DNA of 64,000 nt from an uncultured Pseudomonadota bacterium (GCA_963805995.1 CAWDWL010000007.1:544931-608930), one strand, 5' to 3'; counted from the stretch's first letter, positions 656 to 64,000 are shown. Program-made: numbers and translations. Notes: generated by a model from the sequence alone, not told the origin.

Positions 656-3600
656 GACCTTCATCCGCAACTCGGTCGGCACCACGCTGCTGACGATCGC
701 GTTGGCCCTGGGGGGGATCATCGCGTTCAGACTGCTGCCGGTGTCACCCCTGCCGGAGGTGGAATTTCCCACGATCCAGGTGCAGGCGTTGTTGCCCGGC
801 GCGAGTCCGCAGACGATGGCGTCGTCGGTGGCCACGCCGCTGGAACGCCAGTTTGGACGAATCGCGGGGTTGACCGAGCTTACTTCGACCAGCTCGCTGG
901 GCGCGACCAGCATCGTGTTGCAGTTCGATCTCAGCCGTAACATCGACGCCGCCTCGCGCGATGTCCAGGCCGCGATTAACGCGGCGCGCAGCCAGCTTCC
1001 GGCCAACCTGCCGCAAAATCCCACGTACCGCAAAGTCAATCCGGCCGACGCGCCGATTCTAATCATTGGACTGACCTCGCCCACCAAGGACCCGGGGCAG
1101 ATGTACGACGCGGCCTCGTCGATTCTGGCGCAAAAGCTCTCCCAGATGCAGGGGGTCGGCCAGGTAGTCGTCGGCGGCAGCGCGCTGCCGGGCGTCCGGG
1201 TGGAGCTCAATCCAACCCAACTCACCAATTACGGACTGGGCCTGGAAGATGTCCGTACTGTGCTAAGCCACGCCAACGCCAATTCACCCAAGGGCGAACT
1301 TTCCGGCGACACCATCTCCTGGACGCTGGGGGCCACCGATCAACTGCTGAAAGCGGATCAGTACAAGCCGCTGATCGTGACCTATCACAACGGCGCGGCG
1401 GTGCGCTTGTCCGATATCGCGGAGGTGGTTGATTCAGTCGAAGACCTGCGCAACGCCGGAATGGTCAACGCGCAGCCGGCCGTTCTGATCATTGTTTTCC
1501 GCCAGCCCGGCGCCAACATTATCGATACCGTGGACCGGGTGCTGGCCGCGCTGCCCCAACTGCAAGCGGCGATTCCGCCCGCCATCAAACTAACCGTCAC
1601 GCTCGACCGCACCACCACCATCAGGGCGTCGGTGCGGGACGTCGAAATCACGCTGCTGATCTCCGTCGCCCTGGTCATCCTGGTGGTCTATGTGTTCCTG
1701 CGCGACGTGTGGGTTACGCTAATCCCGGGGGTCGCGGTTCCCATTTCGCTGATTGGAACCTTCGGGGTGATGTATCTGCTGGGCTTCAGCCTGAACAACC
1801 TCTCGCTGATGGCGCTGACGATCTCGACCGGATTTGTGGTGGACGACGCGATCGTCGTGCTCGAAAACATCATCCGCTACGTCGAACATGGGCTGTCGCC
1901 GTTTGAAGCCGCAATCCGAGGCGCCGGCGAGATCGGGTTCACCGTGGTCTCGATCAGCATCTCGCTGATCGCGGTATTTATTCCGCTGCTGCTGATGGGC
2001 GGAATCGTGGGCCGCCTGTTCCGCGAATTCGCCATCACGCTGTCGGCGGCGGTCCTGGTCTCGATGGTGGTCTCTTTGACCACGACGGCGATGATGTGCT
2101 CGAAGATCCTGCGCGCCCGGCGCGAGGGCGCCAGCCGTGGGTTCCATCGCGCGTCGGAGAACGCGTTCTTATGGATGCATCGCCACTATGAGGTGACGTT
2201 GGCGTGGGTGCTCAAGCATTCGCGCCTGACGCTGACGGTCGCGTTAGCCACGCTCGCGGTGAACATCTACCTGTTCATCATCATACCCAAGGGCTTTTTC
2301 CCCGAGCAGGACACCGGCCGGCTGATGGGCGCGCTGATCGCCGACCAGGACACGTCCTTTCAATCCTTGCACGAACTGCTCACCGAGTTCGTCGCGAGCA
2401 TCGTAAAGGATCCCGCGGTGGAGACCGTAACCGCATTCGGTGGCGGGCAGGCCGGCTCGGTCAACTCGGCGCGGATGTTCATCGGGCTCAAGCCGTTGTC
2501 GAAAAGAAAGATCAGCGCCACCCAGGTAATGGGCCGGCTGCGCAAGCGGCTCGCCGGTATCCCGGGGGGCACGCTCTACCTCCAGCCGGTACAGGATTTG
2601 CGCATCGGCGGCCGCATGAGCAATGCGTTCTTCCAGTACACCTTGCAGGGCCAGGACCTCGACGCGCTTAATCATTGGGGCCCGCTGTTGTTGGAGAAGC
2701 TGCGCAAGCTCAAGCTGCTCACCGACGTCAATACCGACCAGCAAAACAACGGACTGGATGAATCGCTGGTGGTGGATCGGCCCACCGCGTCGCGGCTCGG
2801 GCTCAACCAGCAATTGATCGACGATACGCTGTACGACGCTTTCGGCCAGCGCCAGGTATCGACGATGTACACCGAGTTGAACCAATACCACGTCGTGATG
2901 GAGGCTGCGCCGCAATTCTGGCAACACCCCGATACGCTGCACGATATCTATATGCGGACCAACACCGGCGCCGAGGTGCCGCTCAGCTCCTTCACCCATT
3001 TCCAGGCCTCCAACGCGCCGCTCGCGGTAAACCATCAGGGCCAATTCCCGTCCGTTACCATCGCGTTTAATCTGGCGCCTGGAGTCGCGTTGGGGCAGGC
3101 GGTGGAGGCAATCACCGAGTTGGAGCGGCAGATGGGGATGCCGGCGAGTATCCACGGCAGCTTCTCGGGGACCGCGCAGGCGTTCCAGAGTTCGCTGTCC
3201 AGCGAGCCGATGCTGATACTGGCGGCGCTGGTCGCGGTGTATATCGTGCTCGGCATCCTGTACGAGAGCTACATTCATCCGATCACGATTCTTTCCACGC
3301 TACCTTCGGCGGGGGTGGGCGCGCTGCTGGCGCTGATGCTATGCCATACCGACCTCAGCATCATCGCGCTGATCGGCATTATTCTGCTGATCGGCATCGT
3401 GAAGAAAAACGCCATCCTGATGATCGATTTTGCCCTCGACGCCGAGCGCAACGAAGGCAAAACCGCGACCGAGGCAATCTACGAGGCCTGCCTGCTGCGT
3501 TTCCGTCCGATCATGATGACCACGATGGCGGCGCTGCTGGGTGGATTGCCGCTGGCGGTGGGCGGCGGAGTGGGCTCGGAGTTGCGCCGCCCACTGGGAA

Positions 3601-9834: not shown

Positions 9835-9936
9835 CTGATCAATGTGAATCGTTCTCAATCATAGTGATTGAATTTGATTATATCCAATGTGAGATGATTT
9901 GGTGCGACGCCAGGCAGTGGCATTCGGCCCAAGCTC

Positions 9937-10230
9937 TCACTTCGGCAACGCTTCCGCGATCAGCACTCCCGACGCCGTCAATTCCGCGACCTTTTCCTTC
10001 GAGTAGCCCAGATAGCGGCTCAAAACCGCCTCGTTGTGCTCGCCCAGGAAGGCGGTGCGGGCGCGGATTTTCACGCTCGCGTCGGAGACGCGAAAAGGCG
10101 CGCGGGGGAATTGAATCGGACCGATGCCCGGTTGATCGACCTCCTGCATCAGAGCGCGATGCTTCATTTGCGGATGGTTTATGTCGGCGAAAAGAAGCAA
10201 GAAGCAAGCAGACCTCGCCGAGGCCTTCAA
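9937..10230 (-). pseudogene. Displaced 3'-terminal fragment (about 95 codons) of a CaiB/BaiF CoA-transferase gene; remnant of the integration site
   Basis: The translation (..QMKHRALMQEVDQPGIGPIQFPRAPFRVSDASVKIRARTAFLGEHNEAVLSRYLGYSKEKVAELTASGVLIAEALPK) is near-identical to the C-terminus of the intact CoA-transferase at 12871..14097. The two share a 195-nt identical core and are divergent on both sides of it. Confidence 0.75.
9954..10148. repeat. Direct repeat (left copy, 195 bp, 100% identical) of the CoA-transferase 3' region; putative attachment-site core
   Basis: Nucleotide identity with 12888..13082 read directly. The shared 65 codons appear in ORFs 9864..10292 and 12837..13115. Confidence 0.85.
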
Positions 10231-10481: not shown

Positions 10482-12576
10482 ATGGAAGCCACACCCACGC
10501 AAATTATTAACTATTTTAGCGGTTTCAAACAAAATTTAGTGCCGCTCTTTCAGCGTCCCTATACTTGGGCCGAACGTCAGTGGCGAACGTTGTGGGAGGA
10601 CATTTGTAGCTTTTACGGGCACGAGGAGAACGCCGGCAAAGCCACGCATTTCATGGGCGCTGTTGTTACCATGCCCGCCCGAAGCGTGCCAGTTGGTGTT
10701 TCAAAGTTCCTGGTCATAGATGGGCAGCAGCGGCTTACAACGATAGCGTTATTGCTGTGCGCCCTCCGCGATAACTTGTCCTCCACCGATGTCGTTCCGA
10801 AACGACGGATACAAGACTCATTACTTGACAAACGATGGATTCGAAGGATCTGATTTCTTTAAACTGTTGCCGACGCAAGGTGATCGGTTGGCCTATTCTC
10901 AATTGATTGAAAACTCGACCTCGACAATTCCGGATTCTCAATTCAAAAAGGCATACGATTTCTTTCGTCGTCGGCTCAGAAGCGAGGATGACGAAGGTAA
11001 TCCGCTTGATCCGAAGCGAATCCTAGAAATCATCGAGACTCGGTTGATGGTAGTAATGATCAACCTGAGCGACAATGACGATCCTTATCTGATTTTCGAA
11101 AGTCTCAACTTTAAAGGTTCACCTTTAGAACAGTCAGACCTCGTAAGGAATTATTTTCTAATGCGATTTCCCGTGACCGAGCAGCAGGGCGTTTATGACG
11201 ACCTATGGTTGCCGATGCAGAATCGACTCGGTCCGAGCTTGACGGAGTTTATGCGCCATTTTCTCGGTTCAGAAGGTGAGGAGGTTCGCAAAGGCGACGT
11301 ATACGCTGCTATAAAGCGCCTCACAGCAGATTCGGAACCGCCGTCGGTTCGCCTCCTCATGAGCCGAATGGAGCAATTGTCCACGTTCTACAGTCGAATT
11401 ACTACAACGGCGCCTGAACCTGACGAGAACATTAGCGAGTTTTTTGTCCGATTTCGTCGGCTTGACTTTGGAACCGCATACCCTCTTCTACTTTCGCTGT
11501 ACGAGGACTTCGTGGATGGTCAATTCGGAACGGAGGAATTCGTCGCTAGCCTAAGGATTCTCGATTCCTACATAATTAGGCGCATGGTGGTCGGAGTTCC
11601 ATCCAACTCCCTCGCCGGTATATTTATTTCATTATGCAAGAGTAAACCGATAACCGAGAGCCCGTCTGCCTGGCTCGCGACGGCTCTTAGCCAGGAGACA
11701 AAAAATCGTCGCTGGCCGATCGAAAAGGAGTTTTTTGACAACTGGGTGAATGGGCCGATATACGGTAGCCGAGCTTGTCAGGTAATTCTGGAATGTCTCG
11801 AGAAGCAGTGCGGACATCATGAGGCTGCCTCTCTCAGTGAGGCAAGTGTCGAGCACGTCCTTCCTCAGACTCTAACTCCCGAATGGGAGGAAGCACTTGG
11901 AGATAGGGCAGCCATTACCCATGACGAATGGCTTCACACCATAGGCAATCTTACACTAACCGGATACAACCCCGAACTCAGCAACAAGCCTTACTCAGAA
12001 AAAAGAAACATTCTTGCAATGAGCCATTTTGAGCTCAATAGGTTTTTCGGAAACTGTGAAGTTTGGGATGATTCAGAAATAAAAAAACGCGCAGAGTCCC
12101 TTTTCATAACGGCGCAACAGCTCTGGCAGCGTCCCTCCGAAGTGCTCGAGGAAGAGCCAACGGTACAGCGGTCCACAGCGGCGAATTTCCACGCCGATTG
12201 CATTCGATTAGCTCAGAAGCATCTGGGCGTCGTGTTATCAAAAGTTTCACAGACGCGCTATGAGGCAGGTGATAAAGAGACCCGACTCGTCTGCGCGGTC
12301 TCAGCAGAACATAACGAGAATGGAGGTATCCCCTACTTTTGGTTTGGCTTGCGTCGCAGTCAAGTGGAATTCTTGGAACAAGTGCCTTCCGCGTGGCTCT
12401 GCTTGGGTTGCGGATCGCCTGAACAGACCTTGCTAGTGCCTATTTTAGTCATAAGCCGCGCTCGTTTCCCAGATGAGTGTATCGATGGGAGAGAATCACC
12501 ATTATTGGCACGTTGTAGTCCAAAGAAGAAATGCGAAGTTCGTATTGCGTCTTCTGGGAGGCATGGATGGGCCTGA
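10482..12576 (+). CDS. GmrSD-family type IV (modification-dependent) restriction endonuclease, DUF262 (ParB-like NTPase) + DUF1524 (HNH-like) domains; the frame is interrupted near 10808-10825, so either a pseudogene or a sequencing indel
   Basis: ORF 10482..10853 carries the DUF262 motifs QRPYTW and DGQQRLTT. ORF 10789..12576, in the +1 frame, continues with the DUF262 YLxN...KLLPT region and later the DUF1524 EHVLPQ motif. The frames overlap, consistent with a single-base indel. Local GC is about 45% against about 65% in the flanks. Confidence 0.65.
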
Positions 12577-12870
12577 TTTGCAGGAGTTCCTAATTCCGGA
12601 AAGTGGCGCCTCTGCGACCGTTTCCCATTCCTAATCTGTTGACCTTGATAAGCGGATGTTTGGTCTCCAAAGTCTCTTCGGGGTGGGGCGCATGTAAGGC
12701 CCTGCCCTCAATAATTGAGCTGTATGTTGGGCTTTTAACTGTGGAAGAGTCGGCGGGGGACCGATGACGCCGCGCGGTTAGCAATCCGATTTCGAACTCC
12801 CGGATACATGCCGGGTATTTCGCGTTTATATTAAATTTGCGCGAGTTTTTTGAGCGTTCTCCACAGGGGA

Positions 12871-14097
12871 TTACTTCGGGAGTGGTCCCGCGATCAGCAC
12901 TCCCGACGCCGTCAATTCCGCGACCTTTTCCTTCGAGTAGCCCAGATAGCGGCTCAAAACCGCCTCGTTGTGCTCGCCCAGGAAGGCGGTGCGGGCGCGG
13001 ATTTTCACGCTCGCGTCGGAGACGCGAAAAGGCGCGCGGGGGAATTGAATCGGACCGATGCCCGGTTGATCGACCTCCTGCATCACGCCGCGGAACTTCA
13101 TCTGCGGATGGTTGACCGCCTGGCCGATGTCGAGCACCGGGGCGCTCAGGATGCGATGCTGCTCCAGGATCCGCAGCGGTTCGTCGCGGCTTTCGAAAGA
13201 TAGCAGCCAGTCTTCGATTATTCGCACCAGCTCGAAGCGGTTTTTGGCCCGCTCGGTAGGCGGATTAAACCGTGGATCGCTCAGCAATTCGGGTTTGCCG
13301 ATCGCCTGGGCAAAAGTTTCCCACTGATGGATCAGGGCGGTGATGATCATGTAGCCGTCGCGCGCTTTGAAGATTCCGCACGGCGCGATGCTGCTCAGAT
13401 GCGAGCCGTTACGCATCGGATTGTCCGCGCCATCGCTGATGACATAGCGGGCCAGCGCCAGGTCGTGAAGATTGAACAGGCTCTCCACCAAGGAAATATC
13501 GAGGTAGCGTCCGGCGCCGGTCTGCGCGCGATTGAAGAGCGCCGCGCATACCGCACTGAATGCATGGATGCCGGCGTTGGCATCCGCGATTGATGCACCG
13601 ATATAGGTCGGCACGCCGTCGGGGTCGCCGGTCAGATGTGTCAGCCCGCTCATCGCCACTGCCATCGTATCGTTGCCGTTGCGATGGCTGAACGGACCGT
13701 CCTGCCCGAAAGCGGAGATCGAACACATGATTAGCCGCGGGTTAAGCTTGCGCAGGTCTTCGTAACCCAGGCCGCGTCGTTTGAGCACGCCGGGGCTGTA
13801 GTTTTCGATCAACACGTCGGCCTGGGCGGCCAATTCCCGCGCGACGCGCTTGCCCGCGTCCTTTTCGATGTCGATGCAGACGCTCTCCTTGCCGCGGTTT
13901 TCGAGCATGAAGATGGCGCTCTGACCGGCTTTGAGCGGAGTATAGCCGCGCAAATGGTCGCCGTGCGGACCGAACTCGACTTTGACCACTTCCGCGCCCA
14001 TGTCGGTCATCATGCGCGAGGCCGTGGGGCCGGCGAAGAATTGGCCGAATTCAAGCACCTTCACGCCAGCTAGTAGTCCGTCATTGGATTGATCCAT
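12871..14097 (-). CDS. CoA-transferase, family III (CaiB/BaiF)
   Basis: A 408-aa protein with a CaiB/BaiF-type N-terminus (LAGVKVLEFGQFFAGPTASRMMTDMGAEVVKVE) and the conserved family III domain order. ATG at 14097 with GAGGTA 5 nt upstream. Confidence 0.9.
   Translation of the reverse strand: MDQSNDGLLAGVKVLEFGQFFAGPTASRMMTDMGAEVVKVEFGPHGDHLRGYTPLKAGQSAIFMLENRGKESVCIDIEKDAGKRVARELAAQADVLIENYSPGVLKRRGLGYEDLRKLNPRLIMCSISAFGQDGPFSHRNGNDTMAVAMSGLTHLTGDPDGVPTYIGASIADANAGIHAFSAVCAALFNRAQTGAGRYLDISLVESLFNLHDLALARYVISDGADNPMRNGSHLSSIAPCGIFKARDGYMIITALIHQWETFAQAIGKPELLSDPRFNPPTERAKNRFELVRIIEDWLLSFESRDEPLRILEQHRILSAPVLDIGQAVNHPQMKFRGVMQEVDQPGIGPIQFPRAPFRVSDASVKIRARTAFLGEHNEAVLSRYLGYSKEKVAELTASGVLIAGPLPK
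12888..13082. repeat. Direct repeat (right copy, 195 bp) forming the 3' part of the intact CoA-transferase gene
   Basis: Identical to 9954..10148. Confidence 0.85.
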
Positions 14098-15437: not shown

Positions 15438-16192
15438 TGCCGAGGTTTGGAACGCTTGATGTTAACGAACTGGCTTCCAGCGTGCCGGAGATCGACGGCT
15501 TCGGCACGCAGCGCGAGAGCCTTAAGAATGCGCAACTGCTGAACGTCTCTTACGAGATCTCCGCCAACGGTTCCGACGCGCTGCTGCCGCCGGCGATGAA
15601 TCCGAGCATCCCGCCGTACCTTCAGTGCACGGTGATGGTCTGTCCGGAAAGTCCGTGGGGTCCGTTCACGACCGGCGAGTTACGCCTGGTCGGACGCGCC
15701 GGTTTTCGCCCCCGCGCCTTCACGTTCAAGACCTTCGTGGACAATCCGAAAGCCGCCAGCGAACTGGCGCGGCGTTGGGGATTTCCGGTAGCGCCGGGAA
15801 AAACGCAGATCCATCCGCGCCACGAGCGGATCGTGGTGGAGATCCACGACGACAAGGGCCGGCGCATGCTGGAAGCGGAGATGATCGATCGCGAAGGCAT
15901 TGGCGGCAGCGATATCCAGTACGTCGCCAGCATGCACCTGGCTCATAGCCGCGGTGATGGCAAGCTGGTGATGGTGCAGGTCGACCCCGACTACGTGTTC
16001 ACCAAGGCCGAGCGCGGCTTGTCGCACTTCATCTACCTCGATCAGGAGGCTTGGGGAGCCAAAGGACTGATCACGCCCACCAACCCGATAATTTCAACTT
16101 ATGCGCAGTGCGAAGTGATACTGCCGCAGATTCGCTTCATTTGCGATCCGAACCGCAACGCGCTGGAAAGCACGGTTCGCGTTAACGCGTAA
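15437..16192 (+). CDS. Acetoacetate decarboxylase (ADC)-like family protein (tentative)
   Basis: About 250 aa. Its start codon overlaps the LLM stop (TGATG), indicating translational coupling. The size and secondary-structure-like pattern are compatible with the ADC-like fold. Assigned by recollection of family features only. Confidence 0.5.
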   Translation: MPRFGTLDVNELASSVPEIDGFGTQRESLKNAQLLNVSYEISANGSDALLPPAMNPSIPPYLQCTVMVCPESPWGPFTTGELRLVGRAGFRPRAFTFKTFVDNPKAASELARRWGFPVAPGKTQIHPRHERIVVEIHDDKGRRMLEAEMIDREGIGGSDIQYVASMHLAHSRGDGKLVMVQVDPDYVFTKAERGLSHFIYLDQEAWGAKGLITPTNPIISTYAQCEVILPQIRFICDPNRNALESTVRVNA

Positions 16193-16195
16193 CGG

Positions 16196-16710
16196 TTTCT
16201 ACGCTGTCCCCTCTCCCACATTTAATTGCGGGAGAGGGGACAGTTCTCCCAAAGCGAAAATAGAATATGTCCAGAGCACAAACGCATTGGTGCGGAGGCA
16301 ATTTCTATTTCCCCTCCTTATCCTGAGACTGTCGACAAACTCCTAAAACCTACCTCGGCGTGCGATTTGCGCCAGCAAGTCGCGTGACGGGCGAGGGTGC
16401 AGGCCCTGCCAGGAGGTGTCACGCAGGCAGAATCTCGCAGTGCGCCAATGCGTTTAGCCTACTTGAGGTGTATCAGAACCTTCACCCTCGCCCTCTCCCA
16501 CAACTGAATGTGGGCGAGGGAACAGAACCAAGCCGCCATTGCGCGACCGCGCTATCAAGCATCGTGGCTTTGCCCCTTAGTCGTTTATCGACAGTCTCTG
16601 TCCTCGCCCTAAAGCGAAAATAGTTTTGCGCCTTGAGTGCACGAACACATTGGCGCAGAGGCCATTTCTGTTCCCTCTCCTTATCCTAGGAGAGGGCGAG
16701 GGAGAGGTTA
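16196..16710. repeat. Repeat-rich intergenic block containing MITE-like element A plus nested short palindromes (CCCCTCTCCC / GGGAGAGGGG hairpins, duplicated AAAGCGAAAATAG...CGCATTGG...TTCCCYTCCTTATCCT subunits)
   Basis: Several inverted and tandem sub-repeats read directly. ORF 16360..16623 inside it is repeat-derived and not considered coding. Confidence 0.6.
16325..16600. mobile_element. MITE-like element, family A, copy 1 (about 275 bp) with 16-bp terminal inverted repeats GAGACTGTCGACAAAC ... GTTTATCGACAGTCTC
   Basis: Terminal inverted repeats read directly. About 93% identical, in inverted orientation, to 23357..23690. No transposase is encoded. Confidence 0.55.
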
Positions 16711-17170
16711 CACGCTCCGACCTTGATCCATGTTTCGCCCTCAGCCGAGGCATTTCGCCCCAGATTTTTTTCGCGCTTCAGGACGAAGTGCTTTGATCGG
16801 AAAATTTCAATATTTTGGTTAGGGTTGGAAGAGGGCGAGGAAGAGTTCGCACGCCCCGATATTCGCAACCGCCACGCGCGGTGAATTTCAAGGCCTCGAC
16901 CAGTGAGCTTTTCGATCCCAGCAAGGACAACAAAGGAAATAAGCGCAACTCCCATACGCGAGAAAAGTCTATTTCTCGTGGGCGGTGTCCCGCTGAAAGG
17001 ATCGGGATAGCGTCGCCGGTGCAGTGGACGTGGCCGGAATGGCAGGCGATGAGGTGGCACCGCAAGGCGCCCAGGTCTTCAACGAATTGCTCAAAAAGTA
17101 GGGTCCGCCCAGGAGAGTCCGGCCCGATCGTGTGGTGCTACATAAAGGCAAGGTCTAATTGTCTAATTCT

Positions 17171-18157
17171 ATGAACGACACAACGCCACCGCCCCCATCG
17201 CCTCAATACGAAACCTTGCGGCCGGCGACGGCCATCGCATCGCATCGAGTACTCACCGATAAGGTTGCCGAATACTGCAAGGCGCAGGCGGCCATTACGG
17301 ACACCGCGCGGAAATTCCCGGGATTCGTCGGCACCGAAGTCTTAAGCCCGATTCCCGGTCTTCAAGATGAGTGGGTCGCCATTTTCCGCCTCGAATCCAA
17401 TGAGGCGATGAAACGCTGGCTCGCGGCGCCCGAACGCACCAGGCTGGCCGAACGAATCGAGCAGTACCTCACCGAACCGTCGCACCTGTTGATCCTCGCC
17501 AGTGACGAGCGCACCGAAGCGCCAGTCGCGATGGTCTTCACCCATCGTGTCCCCGAGGGCAGGGTGCCGGATTACCTCGCCTGGAGGCGCAAGGCGATTG
17601 CCGCTCAAGCACACGTTCCCGGCTATCTGGCGACTGAATTTTTCGAACCTCGGGCCAAGGGTCAGGAGGAGTGGGTCGACATCGTACGCTACGATTCCGT
17701 GGAGCATCTGGACGCCTGGATGGAGTCGCAAGAACGGGCCGGTCTCCTGGAGGAACTCAAGCAGATAGTCGAGAGTATGCACTCACATCGAGTAACCGGA
17801 CTGGAAGGATGGTTCGCCGTCAATCGCGGACCCGGCGCGCCGGCCGTTGCGCCGCCGCCGTGGAAACAAGCATTCTCGGTGCTGCTCGCGCTGTATCCCA
17901 CGGTGATGCTGCTTGGCGTGGCCACCAATCCCCTGATGAACGGACTGAGTCTTTCGCTCCAAATGCTGATCGGGAATACACTCTCAGTCGCCCTGTTGAC
18001 CTGGCTAATCATGCCCCGCGTTTCCCGATGGTTGAGTTTCTGGCTCGACCTCCCGGCCGGTGTTCCGTCTTCCGATAAATGGAGGCGGGAAGCGCTCGGC
18101 GTCGGCACCGTCCTGGCACTACTTGCAGCGTTCGTGGGGGTATTTGGGCTGCTATGA
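17171..18157 (+). CDS. Membrane protein with two tandem ABM (antibiotic-biosynthesis-monooxygenase / Dabb-like) domains and C-terminal transmembrane helices
   Basis: Two repeated segments of about 100 aa (..FVGTEVLSP...EWVAIFRLESNEAMKRWL.. and ..GYLATEFFEP...EWVDIVRYDSVEHLDAWM..) followed by 3 predicted TM helices. The ATG at 17171 is preferred over the track's TTG at 17159. Confidence 0.65.
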   Translation: MNDTTPPPPSPQYETLRPATAIASHRVLTDKVAEYCKAQAAITDTARKFPGFVGTEVLSPIPGLQDEWVAIFRLESNEAMKRWLAAPERTRLAERIEQYLTEPSHLLILASDERTEAPVAMVFTHRVPEGRVPDYLAWRRKAIAAQAHVPGYLATEFFEPRAKGQEEWVDIVRYDSVEHLDAWMESQERAGLLEELKQIVESMHSHRVTGLEGWFAVNRGPGAPAVAPPPWKQAFSVLLALYPTVMLLGVATNPLMNGLSLSLQMLIGNTLSVALLTWLIMPRVSRWLSFWLDLPAGVPSSDKWRREALGVGTVLALLAAFVGVFGLL

Positions 18158-18198
18158 TTCTTGCTGTTTGTGGCCTTGGCGGGTGATACGGTTTTCCT

Positions 18199-19518
18199 TC
18201 AGGGCTGGTTTCCGGCCAGACGCGGTCCGATAAACGGTATCTTGCCGATTGCCGCCCGGATTGCGGACTTGATTGCGTGTCCGATTCGATGCAGCAGGAG
18301 TTCGAGTTTGCCCCACGCGATCCGGAACAGGCCGCCGCGATCAATCCCTCTTTGCGTCTCAATCGGCACGCTCAGCAGGGTGCGATCGTCCTCATGGACG
18401 GTGAGACTTCCGACTTTGGTGCCCATCGGGACCGGGGCGACCAGGTAGTTGACGTCCAGGCCTCCGGTGAGTTTGATCTTCTTTTCATCGCCCTTGGGCA
18501 AAGTGATCGTGACCGGTCCGGGCGGAGCCAGCGCGACGATGGAATCCACTCCTTCGTAAACCGGCAGCGAGGCCGGAACCAGCGGGCGCCAATCCGGCGT
18601 AACGTTGACGAAGGAGCGGAACGCCCATGCCAACAGCTTTTCGGTTTCCGTCCGGCGCTTCTCGGCATTGGGCGCGCCCATCAATGCGGAAACCAGACGC
18701 ATATTGTCGGCGTGAGCGGTTGCGACCAGATGAAACCCGGCTTCATCGACGTGGCCGGTCTTCATTCCGTCAACCCGCGCATCGTAAAGCAGCAGGGTGT
18801 TCCAGTTGCGCTGGGTGATCTGATGGAAGGTAAATTCCTTCGCTGAGGTGTACTCCAGGGAATTGGGAAACTGTTTCATCACCAGGGTTGCCAACTTTAC
18901 CATGTCGGACGCCGTGGTGTATTGGTCCGGTTCGGGCAGGCCGTCGGGACTGGCAAAACGGGTCTCGTTCAGGCCCAGGCGATGACAGTAGTCGTTCATC
19001 ATCACCACGAAGCCTTCTTCGCTGCCACCCAAATATTCGGCCAGGGCCATCGCCGCGTCATTGCCCGATGACACCATCAAACCGTAGAGCAGCTGTTTGA
19101 CCGGGACCTGCTGGCCGACCTCTAGAAACATCTTCGACACCGTCTGGTCCACGGACAGCCGCCACGCTTTCTCGCTGATGTTCACCGACGTATCGAGCGT
19201 CAGCTTGCTGTTCTTGAGCGCTTCCAAGGTAATGTAGAAGGTCATTATCTTGGCCAGGCTCGCGGGCTGGATGCGCAGGTGCTCGTTGTACGCATAGAGC
19301 ACCTCGCCGGAGTGGAACTCGGTCAGCATCGCCGCCCGCGCGTCGAGCGCAAACGGCGCCGGATTATTGCCGAGAACTCGAATCTGGTTAAGTGGCTCGA
19401 TTGGAGGCGGCGCCGACGCCATGGCGTGGTGCCTGGCGGCACTCGCGACCGAAAAGGTCCCGAGTAAAATCGCCCCCATAACCCAAATCAACTTCCACCG
19501 CTTGCATGCCCAAGGCAT
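18199..19518 (-). CDS. D-alanyl-D-alanine carboxypeptidase (serine-type, peptidase S11, PBP5/6-like)
   Basis: A signal peptide, then SLAKIMT (the S11 SxxK active-site motif) and the SGN and KTG motifs. GAGGGG RBS upstream of the ATG at 19518. Confidence 0.85.
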   Translation of the reverse strand: MPWACKRWKLIWVMGAILLGTFSVASAARHHAMASAPPPIEPLNQIRVLGNNPAPFALDARAAMLTEFHSGEVLYAYNEHLRIQPASLAKIMTFYITLEALKNSKLTLDTSVNISEKAWRLSVDQTVSKMFLEVGQQVPVKQLLYGLMVSSGNDAAMALAEYLGGSEEGFVVMMNDYCHRLGLNETRFASPDGLPEPDQYTTASDMVKLATLVMKQFPNSLEYTSAKEFTFHQITQRNWNTLLLYDARVDGMKTGHVDEAGFHLVATAHADNMRLVSALMGAPNAEKRRTETEKLLAWAFRSFVNVTPDWRPLVPASLPVYEGVDSIVALAPPGPVTITLPKGDEKKIKLTGGLDVNYLVAPVPMGTKVGSLTVHEDDRTLLSVPIETQRGIDRGGLFRIAWGKLELLLHRIGHAIKSAIRAAIGKIPFIGPRLAGNQP

Positions 19519-19726
19519 AGAGCACCGCCCCTCACGTCCCGCTTAACTAGACATTAGAACCCCGATGACGCGGCGGCAAGCGGCGTGGCAAACACTTGGT
19601 AACAAGCCGGGAATTCCACTGCGTCCACCGGTGCGCCAGTCGCCAAATCGGGTCCACTAGGGATGGTTCGAACTCAACCGAGTCCGACCCCGTAACCCTG
19701 CGGGATCAGCTAAGCACATTGGGACC

Positions 19727-19745
19727 GCTGGCACGAAGGATGCTT
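19727..19745 (+). promoter_or_regulatory. Putative sigma-54 (RpoN) promoter: TGGCACG-aagg-ATGCT (consensus TGGCACG-N4-TTGCW)
   Basis: The GG-N10-GC spacing is exact, with a single mismatch in the -12 element. It lies about 115 nt upstream of ORF 19862. A sigma-54 activator gene is 1.6 kb downstream on the same strand. Confidence 0.45.
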
Positions 19746-19861
19746 CTCAGAAGCCATGGAAATTGGAATGAAGCAAAAGGGCCCCATAGGGCGCAGAAAT
19801 ATGACGCGACTGTGGCCGATTAGGGAGCAATTCCCCGTTTCAATGCCACAAAGGGGATGAA

Positions 19862-20251
19862 ATGGCTATGGAGAGTCCCTCCAGGCAATTTGAAGACAGC
19901 AGCCAGACTTGGGCTGCGGGCAGCAATCTTTTGGCCCCGGATTGTCTGCTGCCGGTTCAATACAATGATCTGATACGAAAGCGCCACGTGCTTGAGGGGG
20001 AAGTTAAGCTGATGATGGCGGTTTTGAAGGACGCAATCCGCGCCTACATCAGGGACATGGACGGACGCACCCCGCAGGCACGGCGCAATTTCCAGGAAAC
20101 TTATCGATGGGTCCATGCCGCAGATCAGGACGGGGTCTTTGCCTACGACAATGTCTGTGACACCTTGGGACTGGAACCCGGCCTGCTGCGCCGATGGCTC
20201 AAATCGCTACACGACGTCGAATTGGCTCTACCGCGCGCCACAGGACGTTGA
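19862..20251 (+). CDS. Hypothetical protein (129 aa), unknown function
   Basis: An ATG with AGGGGA 5 nt upstream. The codon usage matches its neighbours and it sits downstream of the putative sigma-54 promoter. I recognise no family. Confidence 0.5.
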   Translation: MAMESPSRQFEDSSQTWAAGSNLLAPDCLLPVQYNDLIRKRHVLEGEVKLMMAVLKDAIRAYIRDMDGRTPQARRNFQETYRWVHAADQDGVFAYDNVCDTLGLEPGLLRRWLKSLHDVELALPRATGR

Positions 20252-20344
20252 ACCGCTGCTCGCTCCCACCAAGCTCGGCCGATGCGGTTGGCCATCAATC
20301 CGCGCGCTTGGTGGAGTGCGTAAAACGGTGTCTGCGTGGACCGT

Positions 20345-20462
20345 CCAAGGTTTGGTGGTTGCGCGCCTGCGGGAAAGATGGCTTCACTCATACATCTTCT
20401 CTCCTTCTCGGAGAGATAAGTGTGAGGCAGCAGGCAGTGAAAAGGCGGAAATCCTTTTTCCG
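20345..20462. repeat. MITE-like element, family B, copy 1 (5'-truncated); hairpin core TCTTCTCTCC..GGAGAGATAAG and right terminus GGCGGAAATCCTTTTTCCGC
   Basis: About 80-85% identical to 34921..35067 over about 115 bp, read directly. Confidence 0.55.
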
Positions 20463-20764
20463 CGATCTGCCAGGGCCGCCGCTCGCTCCGCTGGCGATGC
20501 TCGCGGGCGTTGGCCCAACAATCAGAGGCGCTAAAACCCAGCCTTTAGACCCACGGAGGCGTCCGGCGGCATCCCGATGACACCGTCGCTCTGTTCCGTA
20601 CCGTCGAGCTGAATCCCGACATTACCGGATAGAACCGGAAGCCCCAAATCCCAGGTCCGAGAGGTCTTGCGGAATCCGCCGACTTCGGCAATATGGTTAT
20701 TTGGCAGAGGGTCGGTCTTCAGACGTCGGGAAGGCCTGATCCGCGCAGTAACGGTTGGGAGGGT

Positions 20765-21370
20765 ATGCTGGTGGGACGTTCTACCCTTGGAGACGCGGGA
20801 GATCAGTCAACTGCCGTACGCGCAGAAGCTTTCAGTCGCAGGCGGTTGCTCAAATGGGGGTCCTTGATAGCGGGTTCCACGCTGGTGCCAGGCGCGGCAT
20901 TCGCTGCTCTGCGCGTGCCCTATCCGCCCGACCGCTCGCTCAGGTTCTACAACCTGCATACCGGTGAGAGCCTCAACACGGTTTACTGCGAGAATGGCCG
21001 TTACATCCCCGGCGCTCTGAGCCAGGTTAACTACATCCTGCGCGATTTCCGGGCCAACGAGATCAAAGCAATCGATCCGCGGCTGCTCGACCTGCTGTAT
21101 TCACTCAATCGCCGGCTTTATACGCAACAACCCTTCGAGATCATCTCCGGCTACCGCTCGCCGGCAACCAACGCAATGCTGGCCGCGCGCAGCGAGGGAG
21201 TGGCTCGCCACAGTCTGCATATCGAAGGCAAGGCCGCCGATATTCGGGTGCCGGACCGGGGATTGCGGGAAGTATGGCGCGCGGCGATGGACATGTGGAG
21301 CGGGGGCGTCGGCTTCTATCCGCGGTCCGACTTCGTCCACGTGGATGTTGGCCGTCCCCGTTTCTGGTAA
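20765..21370 (+). CDS. DUF882 domain protein (YcbK-like, peptidase M15 superfamily) with twin-arginine signal
   Basis: The ATG at 20765 has GGGAGGG 3 nt upstream. The Tat-like signal SRRRLLKWGSLIAGSTLVPGAAFA is followed by the conserved DUF882 core (..SGYRSPATNAML..HSLHIEGKAADI..). Confidence 0.8.
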   Translation: MLVGRSTLGDAGDQSTAVRAEAFSRRRLLKWGSLIAGSTLVPGAAFAALRVPYPPDRSLRFYNLHTGESLNTVYCENGRYIPGALSQVNYILRDFRANEIKAIDPRLLDLLYSLNRRLYTQQPFEIISGYRSPATNAMLAARSEGVARHSLHIEGKAADIRVPDRGLREVWRAAMDMWSGGVGFYPRSDFVHVDVGRPRFW

Positions 21371-21464
21371 GCGCCAAAAGACCGGTATCAGCGCACAACG
21401 CCCGGGGGGAGACGCATCACGCCGCCCTTTTTTAGCGCTGGATTTTGGCGTAAGATCGCCGGAT

Positions 21465-23114
21465 ATGCCCGACATCGGCCGTCCGCGCGCAATCAACGAT
21501 GCCAGAACTGCCGCGAATTCAACGGCCGGATTCCAGTCCTGTCCGGATTCCAAACCCGGTCCGGATTCCAAACCCGGTAAGGACATGCCTGATACCCCTG
21601 GCACTCACCGATTACACTCCGACAGCCCCGCTTATTTTCATTTGCTGTGGGATCACGAACTGGACAGCCTCGCCCCGATTCTGGACTCAATCCTGAGCCG
21701 GCGCGAACAGGTCCTGGCCCACTGGCATCGGCTCTATATCCTGCATTTCGGCGATTCACGCTCACTTTCCGACCGCGAGTTCATGGAGATCTTCGGCGCG
21801 GATCTGGCGGCGACCGTCGGTGACCTGCGGGCCAAGGACGTCAATAAATTCACCGCCGACGTACGTCGGATCGGCGAAGCGCTGGCGGAGCGCCGGGTGC
21901 CGTTCTCGGAGGTCGTGGTCTCGATGCATCTGTTCGAGGAAAGCGCCACCGGTGCCTTCCCGAGCTTTCCGCCCCCGATGCCCAAGATTTACCTCGCATT
22001 CGATAAACTCAGCCATTGCCGGATGATCGTCCTGGCCGACGCCTTTTTCCGTTCGACCGCGGCGGTCGCCAACGCCCGGATCCGTGATCTTGAACGGGAG
22101 GCCTCCCTGTTGCCACGCCAGGCCCGCAGCCGCTTTCATGGCCTCGTTGGGGCCAACCCCGCAATGCGCCAGTTGTATGACCGCGTTGAAGCGGCCGCCA
22201 GGACCCGCGGCACGATTCTGATCGTGGGAGAAAGCGGCACCGGCAAGGAACTGGTGGCCCGGGCGATTCACGAGGTTTCCGGCGAGGTCCGCGCTCCGTT
22301 CGTCGCACTTAACTGTGCGGCGATCCCGCGTGAGCTCATCGAAAGCGAGTTGTTCGGCTACAAGCGCGGCGCGTTCAGTGGCGCCAACGCCGAGCATCTG
22401 GGGCTGTTTCGCTCCGCGGAGGGCGGCACCCTGTTTCTGGACGAAATCACCGAGATGAGCCCTGAAACGCAGACCAAGTTGTTGCGCGTTCTTCAGGAAC
22501 GATCGGTGCGCCCGGTCGGCGGCACCCACGAAATCCCGATCGATGCGCGGGTCGTCGCCACGACCAATCGCGAACCCACCGACGCGGTGCGGACTGGCCA
22601 GCTTCGTTCCGACCTCTATTACCGGCTGCAAGCCAATGTGCTGCGAATCCCGCCGCTAAGAGAGCGTTTGGACGACGTGCCCTTGCTGATCGAGCACTTC
22701 ATCAACGTCTTTAATGAGCGGCTCAAGCGCCCGATTCCGGTAATCGGCATCTCGGAAGATGCGATGGCGGCGATGCAAAACTACGAATGGCCGGGCAACG
22801 TGCGCGAATTGTCCAACTCGATCGAAGGCGCATTTACCTTCGGGCGTTCCGCGAGCATAACACTGGCGGATCTGCCGCCGCAGTTGGCTGGTGCGTACCA
22901 CTCGGAGCCGGCTGCCGCTCAAAGCGCCCCCCCGGAGCCTCCAACCGGATCCGCCCCCGAAGCGGCCAAGGTGCAGAGCTTTGCCGACGTGGAGCGGGAA
23001 CTGATCCGCCGCGCCCTCGAGAACACCGAAGGAAACAAGGTGCAAGCCGCCAAGTTGCTGCGTATTTCGCGCAAGAAGCTTTACGCGAAGATCGAAAAAT
23101 ACGGCCTTACTTGA
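21465..23114 (+). CDS. Sigma-54-dependent transcriptional activator (bacterial enhancer-binding protein; N-terminal sensory domain + AAA+ sigma-54 interaction domain + C-terminal Fis-type HTH)
   Basis: The AAA+ domain carries GESGTGKELVARAIH and the GAFTGA-like sequence ...ESELFGYKRGAFSGA. The C-terminal HTH is KVQAAKLLRISRKKLY. The start is uncertain: 21345 overlaps the upstream gene, and 21465 or 21585 are both possible ATGs with weak RBS. Confidence 0.85.
   Translation: MPDIGRPRAINDARTAANSTAGFQSCPDSKPGPDSKPGKDMPDTPGTHRLHSDSPAYFHLLWDHELDSLAPILDSILSRREQVLAHWHRLYILHFGDSRSLSDREFMEIFGADLAATVGDLRAKDVNKFTADVRRIGEALAERRVPFSEVVVSMHLFEESATGAFPSFPPPMPKIYLAFDKLSHCRMIVLADAFFRSTAAVANARIRDLEREASLLPRQARSRFHGLVGANPAMRQLYDRVEAAARTRGTILIVGESGTGKELVARAIHEVSGEVRAPFVALNCAAIPRELIESELFGYKRGAFSGANAEHLGLFRSAEGGTLFLDEITEMSPETQTKLLRVLQERSVRPVGGTHEIPIDARVVATTNREPTDAVRTGQLRSDLYYRLQANVLRIPPLRERLDDVPLLIEHFINVFNERLKRPIPVIGISEDAMAAMQNYEWPGNVRELSNSIEGAFTFGRSASITLADLPPQLAGAYHSEPAAAQSAPPEPPTGSAPEAAKVQSFADVERELIRRALENTEGNKVQAAKLLRISRKKLYAKIEKYGLT
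21523..21585 (+). repeat. Tandem repeat, about 3 x 18 bp (CCGGATTCCAAACCCGGT), at the 5' end or leader of the sigma-54 activator gene
   Basis: Read directly. If translated it encodes PDSKPG repeats. Confidence 0.7.
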
Positions 23115-23356
23115 AGCGCCAGCGGCTCAGTTCTCGCTCTCCGGCGGCAGCTCCGCGCCCAACGCCAGGCACATGAAGGCGTCGAGCACGTCGCTGCGGG
23201 TCAGCATCCCTACGCGATTGCGCTCGAACCACCACCTCCCGCCGAATCTACGACGGATGAAACACTAGCCGAGACAGTCGGAAATGTCCTTATGCTGGAT
23301 CCGACGGGCCGCAGGACTTAGCGGACTTCAATTTCTTCTTCCTCCGCTCTCCGCGC

Positions 23357-23690
23357 GAGACTGTCGATAAACGACTAAAGGGCAAAGCCAGGTGCTTGGT
23401 AGCGCGGTCGCGCAATGGTGGCTTGGTTCTGTTCCCTCGCCCACATTCAGTTGTGGGAGAGGGCTGAGGGTGAGGGTTCTGATACACCTCAAGTAGGATA
23501 AACGCATTGGCGCACTGCGAGATTCTGCCTGCGTGACACCTCCTTGCAGGGCCGCCTGCACCCTCACCCGTCACGCGACTTGCTGGCGCAAATCGCGTGA
23601 CGACCTCTCCCGGCATGCGCCTGCGGCACCCGAGTCCGCAGCCGCGGGCGAGGTAGGTTTAGGAGTTTATCGACAGTTTCCGCGCGGAAG
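23357..23690. mobile_element. MITE-like element, family A, copy 2 (about 333 bp), inverted relative to copy 1, with terminal inverted repeats GAGACTGTCGATAAAC ... TTTATCGACAGTTTC
   Basis: Its reverse complement aligns with 16325..16600 at about 93% identity, with one insertion of about 55 bp. ORF 23290..23616 within it is repeat-derived. Confidence 0.55.
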
Positions 23691-23704
23691 GGGAGAGGGG
23701 CCAA

Positions 23705-24091
23705 CTACTGCGGTTTGCCGGGGACTCCGGGGGCGCGCAGTTCGATCGTGTTGCCGTCGGGATCGAGCACCCATAGCAGCGAGCCGAAGCCTTCCATCGA
23801 CATCTCGCGGAATTCCAGTCCGCGCTGCTTGATTGCCGCCTTGGCGGCTTCGTAGTCTTCGACCTCGATCGCAACGTGAGGTCCGGTGGGGTCGATACTT
23901 CCGCCCTTCATTGGATTGTCCGCCGAGATGATATGCAGCGCGCTCTCGCCGACGCCGTACCAGGCGCCGCCGATACCCATCTGCGGGCGCGGAATCTGTT
24001 TGAGCCCGATAACGTTCTCATAGAAATCGCAGGCCTTTTCCACGTCGGTCACCCGGAACGCCGCGTGGTTGAGAGCCTTGGGCTTGGTCAT
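23705..24091 (-). CDS. VOC family protein (glyoxalase/bleomycin-resistance/dioxygenase fold)
   Basis: The N-terminus MTKPKALNHAAFRVTDVEKACDFYENVIG is the typical VOC beta-alpha-beta-beta-beta start. I used the internal ATG at 24091 rather than the track extension. Confidence 0.75.
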   Translation of the reverse strand: MTKPKALNHAAFRVTDVEKACDFYENVIGLKQIPRPQMGIGGAWYGVGESALHIISADNPMKGGSIDPTGPHVAIEVEDYEAAKAAIKQRGLEFREMSMEGFGSLLWVLDPDGNTIELRAPGVPGKPQ

Positions 24092-34920: not shown

Positions 34921-35067
34921 GCGGGAAAAAGGAGTTTCGTGCTCAACCCAGCGTTTGGTGGCTGCGCACCCTGCATGAAAGGTGGCCTCATTCCTACATC
35001 TTCTCTCCCCCTTGGGAGAGAAGAAGAGTGAGGGGGCAGGCCGAAGAAGCGGAAATCCTTTTTCCGC
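34921..35067. mobile_element. MITE-like element, family B, copy 2 (complete, about 147 bp): terminal inverted repeats GCGGGAAAAAGGAGTTTC ... GAAATCCTTTTTCCGC and a perfect palindrome TCTTCTCTCCCCCTTGGGAGAGAAGA
   Basis: Terminal inverted repeats and the palindrome read directly. It overlaps the 3' end of the M23 peptidase ORF. Confidence 0.6.
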
Positions 35068-35073
35068 AGCCCG

Positions 35074-36672
35074 CTAGAGCGAGGGGTCGCCCAACAAACC
35101 GCCTCGGATCAGATGGTTTAAAGGACTGTCATCGGAACCTTGGGCGGCTTGGCCTTCGCGCAGCAATCCACCTCTAACCAGGTGAATGGGGAGGCGATGG
35201 CGGGAGGAGCGATGCCGGGACCGCGATGATGGCTCAATGTCGGGTATCGCCGGCCGCTGGCTTTCCTCGGCGAGTCCGGCGGTCTCGGTCATGGAAGGAT
35301 CCTCCACCGCGGCTTGCGCGACGCCGCCCTGCGTAACCCCATGCAAACGGGCGAAGACTTTCTCAAACTCATTCTTGAACCGTTCAAACAGTGGACGCCG
35401 ATCGGTCGATATGTATCCGCCGCCTTCATCAAGGTTGGCGGTCAGCGGATCCACGAACTGACCGTCCTTGAACAAGGCGTAATGCAGATGCGGTCCGGTC
35501 GAAAGCCCGGTGCTGCCGACGTATCCAATGATTTGCCCGATCCTGACCGGAGCACCAGCCTTAACTTCCGGACTGATCGCGGACAGATGGGCGTAAACGC
35601 TGACCAAGGCGTTGTCGTGCTCGATCCGGATGCAGCGGCCCAGTTCCCCATCCCAGTTGGCGAATTGGACCTTGCCGTCGCTGACCGCCTGTACCGGAGT
35701 GCCATAGCGGGCGGCCAGGTCGATGCCGACGTGAGGACGGAAGCGATGCAGGATCGGATGATAGCGTGAGGGAGAAAAGCCCGAGGAAATATATAGGAAT
35801 TTTACTGGAAATCGCAGAAACTGCGGTTGCAGGGGCTTGCCCTGCTCGTCGTACAGATGTTCGCGGCCATGCTCGTCATGGAAGGAAAACGCGCTATAAC
35901 TGCGCTGGCCCCGTTGCAGCTTGCAAGCCTCCAGATTCTGATCGCGGTGATGGGCGCCGTCGGACGTGACCAATTCCTTGTACGCCAGCTTGAGCGTGCC
36001 CCCCGCTCCCAATTGCGGCATCCGCGTGGCGTACGCATCCTTGATTTGCTCCACCACGGCGCTGGGCAGATGCTTGCTGGCCGCGGCAATGTCGAGCCCT
36101 TGCGCCAGCGAAAGACTGAAGGCGACCGTTTGGGGCCGGTAGGTCAAGGTTTTCCGGGTGGAAAAAACCACGCCGTCTCCGATAGCTTTGGTCATTATTA
36201 CGGAGTCGTCATCGAGGTCGTACTCGAATGCCTCGACCCGGCCGGTCTCGGGATCTTTGTAGAGCGCCACCTGATGACCGGGGCGCAGGATCCCCCAATG
36301 AGCGGAAGAGCGAAAGGCCTGCGCCCAGGCGTTGCGTTCGGGCTCCTCGAGGCCGGCATCGCGCAGCAGTCCCGCGATGCTCACTGGGTGGTCGAGTTTG
36401 AAGCGCTCAATTGTCGGCTCCGGGGCCGGCTCGACGTTCGCTTCGGCTACGTAGTCGTAACAGGGAGCGGAGCGGCCAGCTTCCAAAGCCCGCAGCAGCT
36501 TGGTTTGTTGGGCTTGGGCCAGCGGACGGGTTGGGGTGGCCTTCACGGCAACCCGGTGATGCTGATTGAGATGCCCGAGCGCGCAGAGCGCACTCAACAC
36601 GCATACCAACGCGATGCAGACCAAAACCGGGAATCGGATTGGGCTGCGGGCGGATGCTTCTGGCCCGGTCAT
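35074..36672 (-). CDS. M23 family metallopeptidase (LytM-like) with N-terminal membrane anchor
   Basis: The M23 motifs HVGIDLAARYGTPV and ...GSTGLSTGPHLHYAL. The last about 10 codons run into the family B MITE. Confidence 0.8.
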   Translation of the reverse strand: MTGPEASARSPIRFPVLVCIALVCVLSALCALGHLNQHHRVAVKATPTRPLAQAQQTKLLRALEAGRSAPCYDYVAEANVEPAPEPTIERFKLDHPVSIAGLLRDAGLEEPERNAWAQAFRSSAHWGILRPGHQVALYKDPETGRVEAFEYDLDDDSVIMTKAIGDGVVFSTRKTLTYRPQTVAFSLSLAQGLDIAAASKHLPSAVVEQIKDAYATRMPQLGAGGTLKLAYKELVTSDGAHHRDQNLEACKLQRGQRSYSAFSFHDEHGREHLYDEQGKPLQPQFLRFPVKFLYISSGFSPSRYHPILHRFRPHVGIDLAARYGTPVQAVSDGKVQFANWDGELGRCIRIEHDNALVSVYAHLSAISPEVKAGAPVRIGQIIGYVGSTGLSTGPHLHYALFKDGQFVDPLTANLDEGGGYISTDRRPLFERFKNEFEKVFARLHGVTQGGVAQAAVEDPSMTETAGLAEESQRPAIPDIEPSSRSRHRSSRHRLPIHLVRGGLLREGQAAQGSDDSPLNHLIRGGLLGDPSL

Positions 36673-63960: not shown

Positions 63961-64000
63961 GAAGAGCGTAGCTTGTTCCCTCGCCCACGTTGGTTAGAGA
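63961..64000. repeat. Partial copy of the family A repeat motif (GTTCCCTCGCCCAC...) at the window edge
   Basis: Matches the internal GTTCCCTCGCCCACATTCAGTTGTGGGAGAGGGC segment of the family A elements. Confidence 0.3.

Follow-up and report, generated by a model that had tools for sequence, protein, structure and literature searches.

Do two near-identical repeats that face each other across a block of genes form the arms of one mobile or invertible cassette, or are they separate insertions of a small transposon? The question is raised by a 64,000-nt stretch of DNA from an uncultured Pseudomonadota bacterium (GCA_963805995.1, CAWDWL010000007.1:544931-608930; G+C 60.6%), hereafter the window, whose coordinates are used throughout unless a contig is named. 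Two copies of a repeat that we term family A, c1 and c2, lie in opposite orientation on either side of a 6.6-kb block that holds, as an initial annotation of the window described, genes for an ABM membrane protein, a PBP5-type carboxypeptidase, a hypothetical protein, a DUF882/Peptidase_M15 protein, and a sigma-54 activator. We propose that family A is a MITE (miniature inverted-repeat transposable element), a small non-coding transposon, and that c1 and c2 are old, fixed insertions rather than the arms of a composite element, flanking a block that is never inverted in the assemblies; we put the probability of this reading at roughly 80%.

Both copies are sharply delimited (Table 1). The initial annotation recognized the two inverted elements, with right-hand ends at 16600 and 23690 that overshoot by 2 and 10 nt, respectively, and its estimate of about 93% identity between elements with their own terminal inverted repeats agrees with the roughly 94% that we measured (94.6% over 241 bp and 90.9% over a 33-nt end; 94.9% over 272 shared columns). 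Each of the four ends of c1 and c2 bears a 16-nt terminal inverted repeat, GAGACTGTCGAYAAAC, with zero or one mismatch, and the likeness between the copies ends precisely there. When the window was scanned for GAGACTGTCGAYAAAC with up to three mismatches, five matches were found relative to 0.43 expected; none of 100 shuffled sequences gave five. That neither element encodes a protein was likewise borne out: among 5.8 billion proteins, no homologue was found for the open reading frames that cross the elements (87-108 aa), the spurious 108-aa frame used as a query for miscalled-gene copies found none in the same collection, and no gene is called within family A in any strain contig. The extra palindrome of about 55 bp that had been ascribed to the second copy requires correction, as the quoted palindrome, TCACGCGATTTGCGCCAGCAAGTCGCGTGA, occurs in both copies; what c2 alone carries in the window is a different hairpin of 48 bp. 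Since the c1 orthologues of strains L001 and L085, at 323 bp, contain this hairpin, the 48 bp are ancestral and the c1 of the window is a deletion derivative.

Strain contigs were obtained through exact-protein look-ups from long-read metagenomes (ENA ERZ25039458, -467, -468, -482, -537, and -590); they are 96.5-99.5% identical to the window, except for L083 at approximately 94%. The nearest reference genomes are metagenome-assembled genomes (MAGs) of Candidatus Binataceae, whose PBP5 proteins are 77-80% identical to that of the window; the window comes from a soil population of this family. Copy c2 occupies the same site in the same orientation in 6/6 long contigs, and c1 does so in five of the six, the exception being L083. 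Relatives at the species level (L008-L012) lack family A at both sites but retain the order of the genes. In addition, five short-read contigs (L005-L007, L081, and L082) terminate within or beside the repeats, which lends weak support to a repeated sequence.

Evidence that family A inserts into DNA comes from a third copy, c3 (L083:15982-16291; nhmmer E 3e-53), which lies on the strand of c2 in the spacer between the PBP5 and ADC genes. It is 77-81% identical to c1 and c2, its terminal inverted repeats are present in degenerate form, and a perfect direct repeat of 8 bp borders it on both sides (CTTATCTT|A|CTTATCTT), the kind of target-site duplication that had been put forward as a check on the element. 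Moreover, c3 splits an element of a second repeat family, B, into a left half (B profile 15 to ~84) and a right half (73-139). Copy c1 splits another such element, B1, at B position 84/86, matching the position of c3; the resumed right half of B1 is more readily recognized in L001 (profile 62-123 at 11210-11277, E 9.4e-5). In an unrelated contig, L031/L071, a truncated copy consists of the terminal 49 nt of A, 94% identical and starting exactly at the inverted repeat; its end at L071:4076 abuts a left half of B at about position 82, in opposite orientation and in an unrelated gene context. B elements are intact elsewhere (B2, L071:3813-4003, L072, and L073). The direct repeat CGCGC around c2 sits inside a CTCTCC..GGAGAG hairpin similar to that of B; it is weak by itself because it is short and lies within a CG-rich hairpin loop.

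Table 1. Coordinates of the repeats and associated features in the window
Feature	Position	Strand	Details
REP-like hairpin CCCTCTCCCAC..GGGAGAGGG	16204..16243		just past the ADC stop codon; repeat families D3, I5; motif inside A at 16491-16525 and 23429-23463
B1, left half	16249..16324	+	B profile 6-84; nhmmer E 5.9e-8; interrupted by c1
Target sequence CTTATCCT	16317..16324		loop of B1 hairpin, left of c1; degenerate right copy TGTCCT at 16599-16604
Family A copy c1	16325..16598	+	274 bp; without the 48-bp hairpin; nhmmer E 5.5e-93
c1 terminal inverted repeat, 'TCCTAA' end	16325..16340	+	GAGACTGTCGACAAAC; 0 mismatches
c1 terminal inverted repeat, 'GACTAA' end	16583..16598	-	GAGACTGTCGATAAAC; 0 mismatches
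Family B element B2, intact	16605..16785	+	nhmmer E 1.3e-51; 89% identical to L071:3815-3955
B1, right half	16828..16865	+	B profile 86-123; nhmmer E 0.006; resumes past c1 and B2
CBS-domain gene remnant	23130..23255	-	last 43 codons; tblastn E 9e-12; DNA alignment; Pfam CBS for L009:6273-6752
Direct repeat CGCGC flanking c2	left 23352..23356, right 23681-23685		read from sequence
Family A copy c2	23357..23680	-	324 bp; full length; inverted relative to c1; nhmmer E 1e-117
c2 terminal inverted repeat, 'GACTAA' end	23357..23372	+	0 mismatches
A interior related to family B and the REP-like hairpin	23420..23560	+	c1 equivalent 16395-16535, - strand; aligns with 16196-16330
Palindrome TCACGCGATTTGCGCCAGCAAGTCGCGTGA (TCACGCGA..TCGCGTGA)	23569..23602		both copies; c1 ~16360-16388; self reverse-complement match
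48-bp hairpin segment CGGCTGCGGAC..GTGCCGCAGGCG	23604..23651		c2 only in the window; from alignments; belongs to double-hairpin module
c2 terminal inverted repeat, 'TCCTAA' end	23665..23680	-	GAAACTGTCGATAAAC; 1 mismatch

As read from these alignments, the junctions of c1, c3, and the L071 copy, the repeat around c2, and the absence of A from relatives together show insertion of the transposition type. Small size (274-324 bp), lack of coding capacity, delimiting inverted repeats, and interrupted B elements or empty sites in relatives are the traits of a MITE that family A displays, and the MITE-like nature suggested by the initial annotation is upheld by c3 with its perfect duplication inside B, by the truncated L031/L071 copy, and by the unoccupied sites of relatives. 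We further infer that insertion prefers the loop of a B-type hairpin, from three or four cases of which two may stem from one event.

Family B is itself a MITE. It measures ~175-200 bp and occurs in the window (B1 and B2) and at L071:3720-4012, L072:4380-4554, and L073:12592-12763; an IS1380-family insertion sequence (L001:5790-7299; NF033539) has ends that match the terminal repeat of B, TAACCYYAAAGCGARAATAATTT, which makes B a MITE derived from it. Its derivation from an IS1380-family parent means that MITE formation has occurred in this lineage. The spacer at 16193-17170 is accordingly crowded, a nest that opens with a REP-like hairpin (REP, repetitive extragenic palindromic) and continues with B1 broken by c1 and B2. 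A 202-bp segment of this nest (16605-16806), which takes in most of B2, occurs in L002-L004 as in the window but is missing from L001 and L085. L085 also has, between the equivalents of window positions 17020 and 17068 and upstream of ABM, an IS110-family transposase gene (L085:17043-18091; DEDD_Tnp_IS110) with B-like flanks.

Several observations weigh against the view of family A as a MITE. Only three family A sites are known in one species, together with one relic elsewhere. A pattern built from the inverted repeats as 22-mers had no match in 185,579 GTDB reference genomes, two pattern scans of viral contigs gave none, and a 20-mer pattern matched 43 stretches in JGI metagenomes, 42 of them over the repeat alone (≤25 nt) and only L031 beyond it; with these results, high copy number is not demonstrated. 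Searches for a parent found no transposase with inverted repeats matching those of A; of the three insertion sequences in the strain contigs (IS5, IS1380, and IS110 families), the ends of the IS5- and IS1380-family elements were read. No strain varies in the presence of c1 or c2 at their sites, L083 with c3 in place of c1 aside, so that no sign of recent activity is seen. The duplications at c1 (TGTCCT vs. CTTATCCT) and c2 (5 bp) do not cleanly match the 8 bp of c3, and the flanking repeats of the three copies differ such that duplication length is inconsistent across them. Finally, c1 in B1 and c3 in its B element share junction and orientation and may thus not be independent insertions.

Other searches for copies and parents were likewise unproductive. 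Blastn of plasmids with the element and its 48-nt end returned nothing or chance matches, including a Moraxella match that does not lie at the end of an insertion sequence. When copies of the IS5-family transposase were used as an entry into the rest of the genome, only short contigs were obtained, and a full-text literature search with the inverted-repeat sequence retrieved unrelated primers. Two candidate parents of A, the IS5-family insertion at 19657 and the L001 element of the IS1380 family, were rejected, as their ends are unrelated. A partial third copy had also been proposed at 63961-64000; this region proved to contain ~18 nt of a hairpin arm (GTTCCCTCGCCCAC), has no BLAST or nhmmer match, and lacks the inverted repeat and ~70 nt of element expected before the arm (in the orientation of the arm). 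Approximately 70 nt to the left of c2, GAGACAGTCGGAAATG (23271-23286) equals the A inverted repeat at 11/16 positions and may be a chance match or a relic end.

The shared junction of c1 and c3 also bears on the alternative that A lacks, or has lost, mobility of its own and spreads as a passenger inside B, with the compound B[A] moved by the IS1380-family transposase acting at B ends or copied by recombination. Identical A/B junctions and relative orientation in two nests whose B halves are only ~65-70% alike speak for such a history, as does the occurrence in the population of the insertion sequence from which B derives. Nevertheless, it is A and not B whose ends carry the 8-bp duplication, A has the opposite orientation within B in L071, and c2 stands outside any recognizable full B element (the nhmmer B profile has no match near 23.3 kb); we consider this history unlikely.

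The strongly structured interior of A raises another alternative, that it is a mosaic of palindromes akin to REP or bacterial interspersed mosaic elements (BIMEs), a structured RNA gene, or a regulatory element that is maintained because it serves the host, for instance in transcription termination, mRNA stability, or the binding of proteins, with the inverted repeats as its outermost stem. Predicted folding is very strong relative to shuffled sequence (z = -8.5 for c2 and -4.4 for c1), and c2 sits between convergent gene ends. In another MAG of Binataceae (L011:20128-20222), a double-hairpin module of 94 nt occurs by itself between convergent genes; its identity to A positions 23561-23654 is 82%, and 4/39 predicted pairs keep their pairing through two-sided changes. 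The palindrome shared by both copies likewise shows compensatory stem changes relative to L011. A host function for the element as a whole is nonetheless very unlikely: no Rfam 15 family reaches its gathering score in the entire window (in 15900-24000 the only matches, under that score, are to the Antizyme_FSE hairpin), no promoter-like site lies inside c1 or c2, A is absent from the orthologous sites of relatives, and a precise 8-bp duplication and interruption of B are hallmarks of transposition, not of REP propagation.

We give still less credence to the idea that c1 and c2 serve as arms by which the 6.6-kb block would be moved, as a composite transposon, or flipped, as an invertible cassette. 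The arrangement that inspires the idea is real: repeats of 274 and 324 bp, ~94% identical, bracket the block, and in L083 the segment from PBP5 to the sigma-54 activator also lies between two A copies, here in direct orientation. However, L012 carries LLM-ADC-PBP5-DUF882-sigma54 contiguously, in the same relative orientation as the window, without A and without ABM, and L009-L011 keep PBP5-hypothetical-DUF882-sigma54. As block order and orientation are kept in relatives that lack A, the block is ancestral, neither a composite insertion, as the initial annotation had suggested, nor inverted. Recombination between the repeats could physically invert the segment, as had also been pointed out, but the block has a single arrangement in the window and the six long-read contigs, and the inverted one is found in 0/7 assemblies. 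In addition, the direct repeat around c2 is preserved, and recombination that inverted the segment between the copies would have split it. An inversion between c1 and c2 was also considered as an explanation for the poor duplication at c1 and rejected; swapping the flanks restores none.

The two copies may nevertheless interact, an observation that would fit paired arms. The c2 of L004 (L004:17919-18238) has c1-type bases at 5/14 diagnostic sites, in a tract that fits the c1 allele of the L001 type, and is 6-7% diverged from the c2 of the window in a contig that is 99.2% identical to the window overall. This pattern suggests gene conversion between the inverted copies in L004, although the assembly derives from noisy long reads and assembly noise is possible.

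Lastly, a one-off local inverted duplication with no mobility would account for the two copies in 64 kb and the empty reference-genome scan, but is scarcely credible given a diverged c3 (L083) and the L071 relic in different contexts, boundaries that coincide with inverted repeats, and interrupted B elements.

Both family A sites in the window lie where gene content varies. The PBP5-ADC spacer is 131 bp in L012, holds DUF1329 and MFS genes in L008, B with c3 in L083, and the nest plus ABM in the window. Comparison of window positions 16198-18210 with L083:15893-16503 shows that the ABM membrane protein gene and the nest are absent from L083, which has 612 bp there, comprising B with c3. At the other site, related species carry a complete CBS-domain gene downstream of the sigma-54 activator, of which the window has the remnant beside c2. 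Gene order breaks at this point, to the right of c2, and VOC, acyl-CoA dehydrogenase, and LysR genes follow only in the species of the window.

Within the block, L003 carries an IS5-family insertion sequence (L003:14227-15561; NF033581, ends CAGGATGCGGAAAAA) at the CTAG of 19657-19660, between PBP5 and the hypothetical gene; a 5'-truncated IS5-family copy occupies the same CTAG in L001 (L001:14083-14920), and the window represents the empty site. Two blocks, at 20366-20476 (upstream of the DUF882 gene) and, 14.6 kb away, at 34970-35080, have identical spacing and are ~80% identical. Among their features is a terminator-like hairpin (- strand; 20463-20445 in the first block), and they may represent a small RNA or a regulatory region that is repeated. 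Two other repeats are found farther away. Direct repeats of 260 nt (9920-10179 and 12854-13113; 92% identical) are a duplicated 3' end of a CoA-transferase gene and bracket ~2.7 kb with a GmrSD-type gene; L002 has one repeat copy and no islet. A 300-nt direct repeat (23-322 and 3129-3428; 76% identity) probably reflects paralogous genes.

Known bacterial MITEs include the Correia elements of Neisseria, ERIC/IRU, RUP, and Nezha (reviewed in PMC3184786). Family A resembles them in being small, non-coding, and intergenic, with terminal inverted repeats, a target-site duplication (at c3), strong hairpin potential, and occurrence in either orientation. Unlike them, it is at the large end of the size range (324 bp), its interior has no visible deleted transposase gene but rather a patchwork of local repeats, and very few copies have been found so far. 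Family B shares its genomes and intergenic nests, and a segment of the A interior is related to B, by alignment and by an nhmmer match of the A profile to 16161-16390 on the - strand (E 2e-10); however, the terminal repeats differ (TAACCYYAAAGCGARAATAATTT in B vs. GAGACTGTCGAYAAAC in A), and a parent has been identified for B and none for A.

Insertion into hairpins has precedents. IS1397, ISKpn1, and ISPpu9/10, autonomous members of the IS3 or IS110 families, target REP/BIME palindromes (PMC1525189, PMC12288879), and A similarly enters the loop of an extragenic hairpin that is repeated, or lands next to it, creating nests of repeats. It differs in being non-autonomous and in targeting not a classical REP but a hairpin that belongs to a second MITE, a preference seen in three or four cases only. 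REPINs are doublets of REP sequences that form hairpins and are mobilised by RAYT transposases (PMC3116915, PMC3333891). Like REPINs, A is palindromic and intergenic and forms long hairpins. REPIN movement is not known to leave a target duplication, and it requires a RAYT gene. Copy c3 of A, unlike a REPIN, has its 8-bp duplication.

Under the interpretation of A as a MITE, the ancestral element would have been a non-coding DNA transposon of ~324 bp, whose 16-nt inverted repeats would serve as binding and cleavage sites for a DDE-type transposase supplied in trans from a full-length insertion sequence outside the window. The interior of A is a patchwork of hairpin modules, which are also found alone in Binataceae genomes. 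Integration would involve a staggered cut of ~8 bp, as the one perfect 8-bp duplication indicates, and would favour the loop of CCCTCTCC..GGAGAGGG hairpins, notably the central hairpin of B, if three or four insertions are representative. Target duplications of 8-9 bp are made by the IS256, IS1595, IS4, ISAs1, and IS66 families. Copies c1 and c2 would have inserted long ago, into two variable intergenic regions, and have become fixed in the population; sequence appears to be exchanged between them by gene conversion. Tentatively, as a reading less likely than not, we raise the possibility that a structure- or loop-specific transposase places A into the B hairpin loop in a defined register, that intergenic regions of Binataceae thereby grow as ordered 'MITE-in-MITE' nests, and that the paired modules of A, transported with the element, act as functional structures in single-stranded DNA or RNA.

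A full-text literature search on Binatota and transposable elements found no paper on mobile elements of Binatota. The locus described here contains two MITE families, one with an identified IS1380-family parent, alongside insertions of the IS5, IS1380, and IS110 families that vary among strains. Strains and species differ in gene content where the repeats lie (ABM present or absent, the CBS gene truncated, B2 present or absent). The repeats also disrupt the assembly of these genomes from short reads and could be used as strain markers. Overall, the biology is that of ordinary MITEs, and the apparent preference for hairpin loops as targets is the one feature that may be worth more work.

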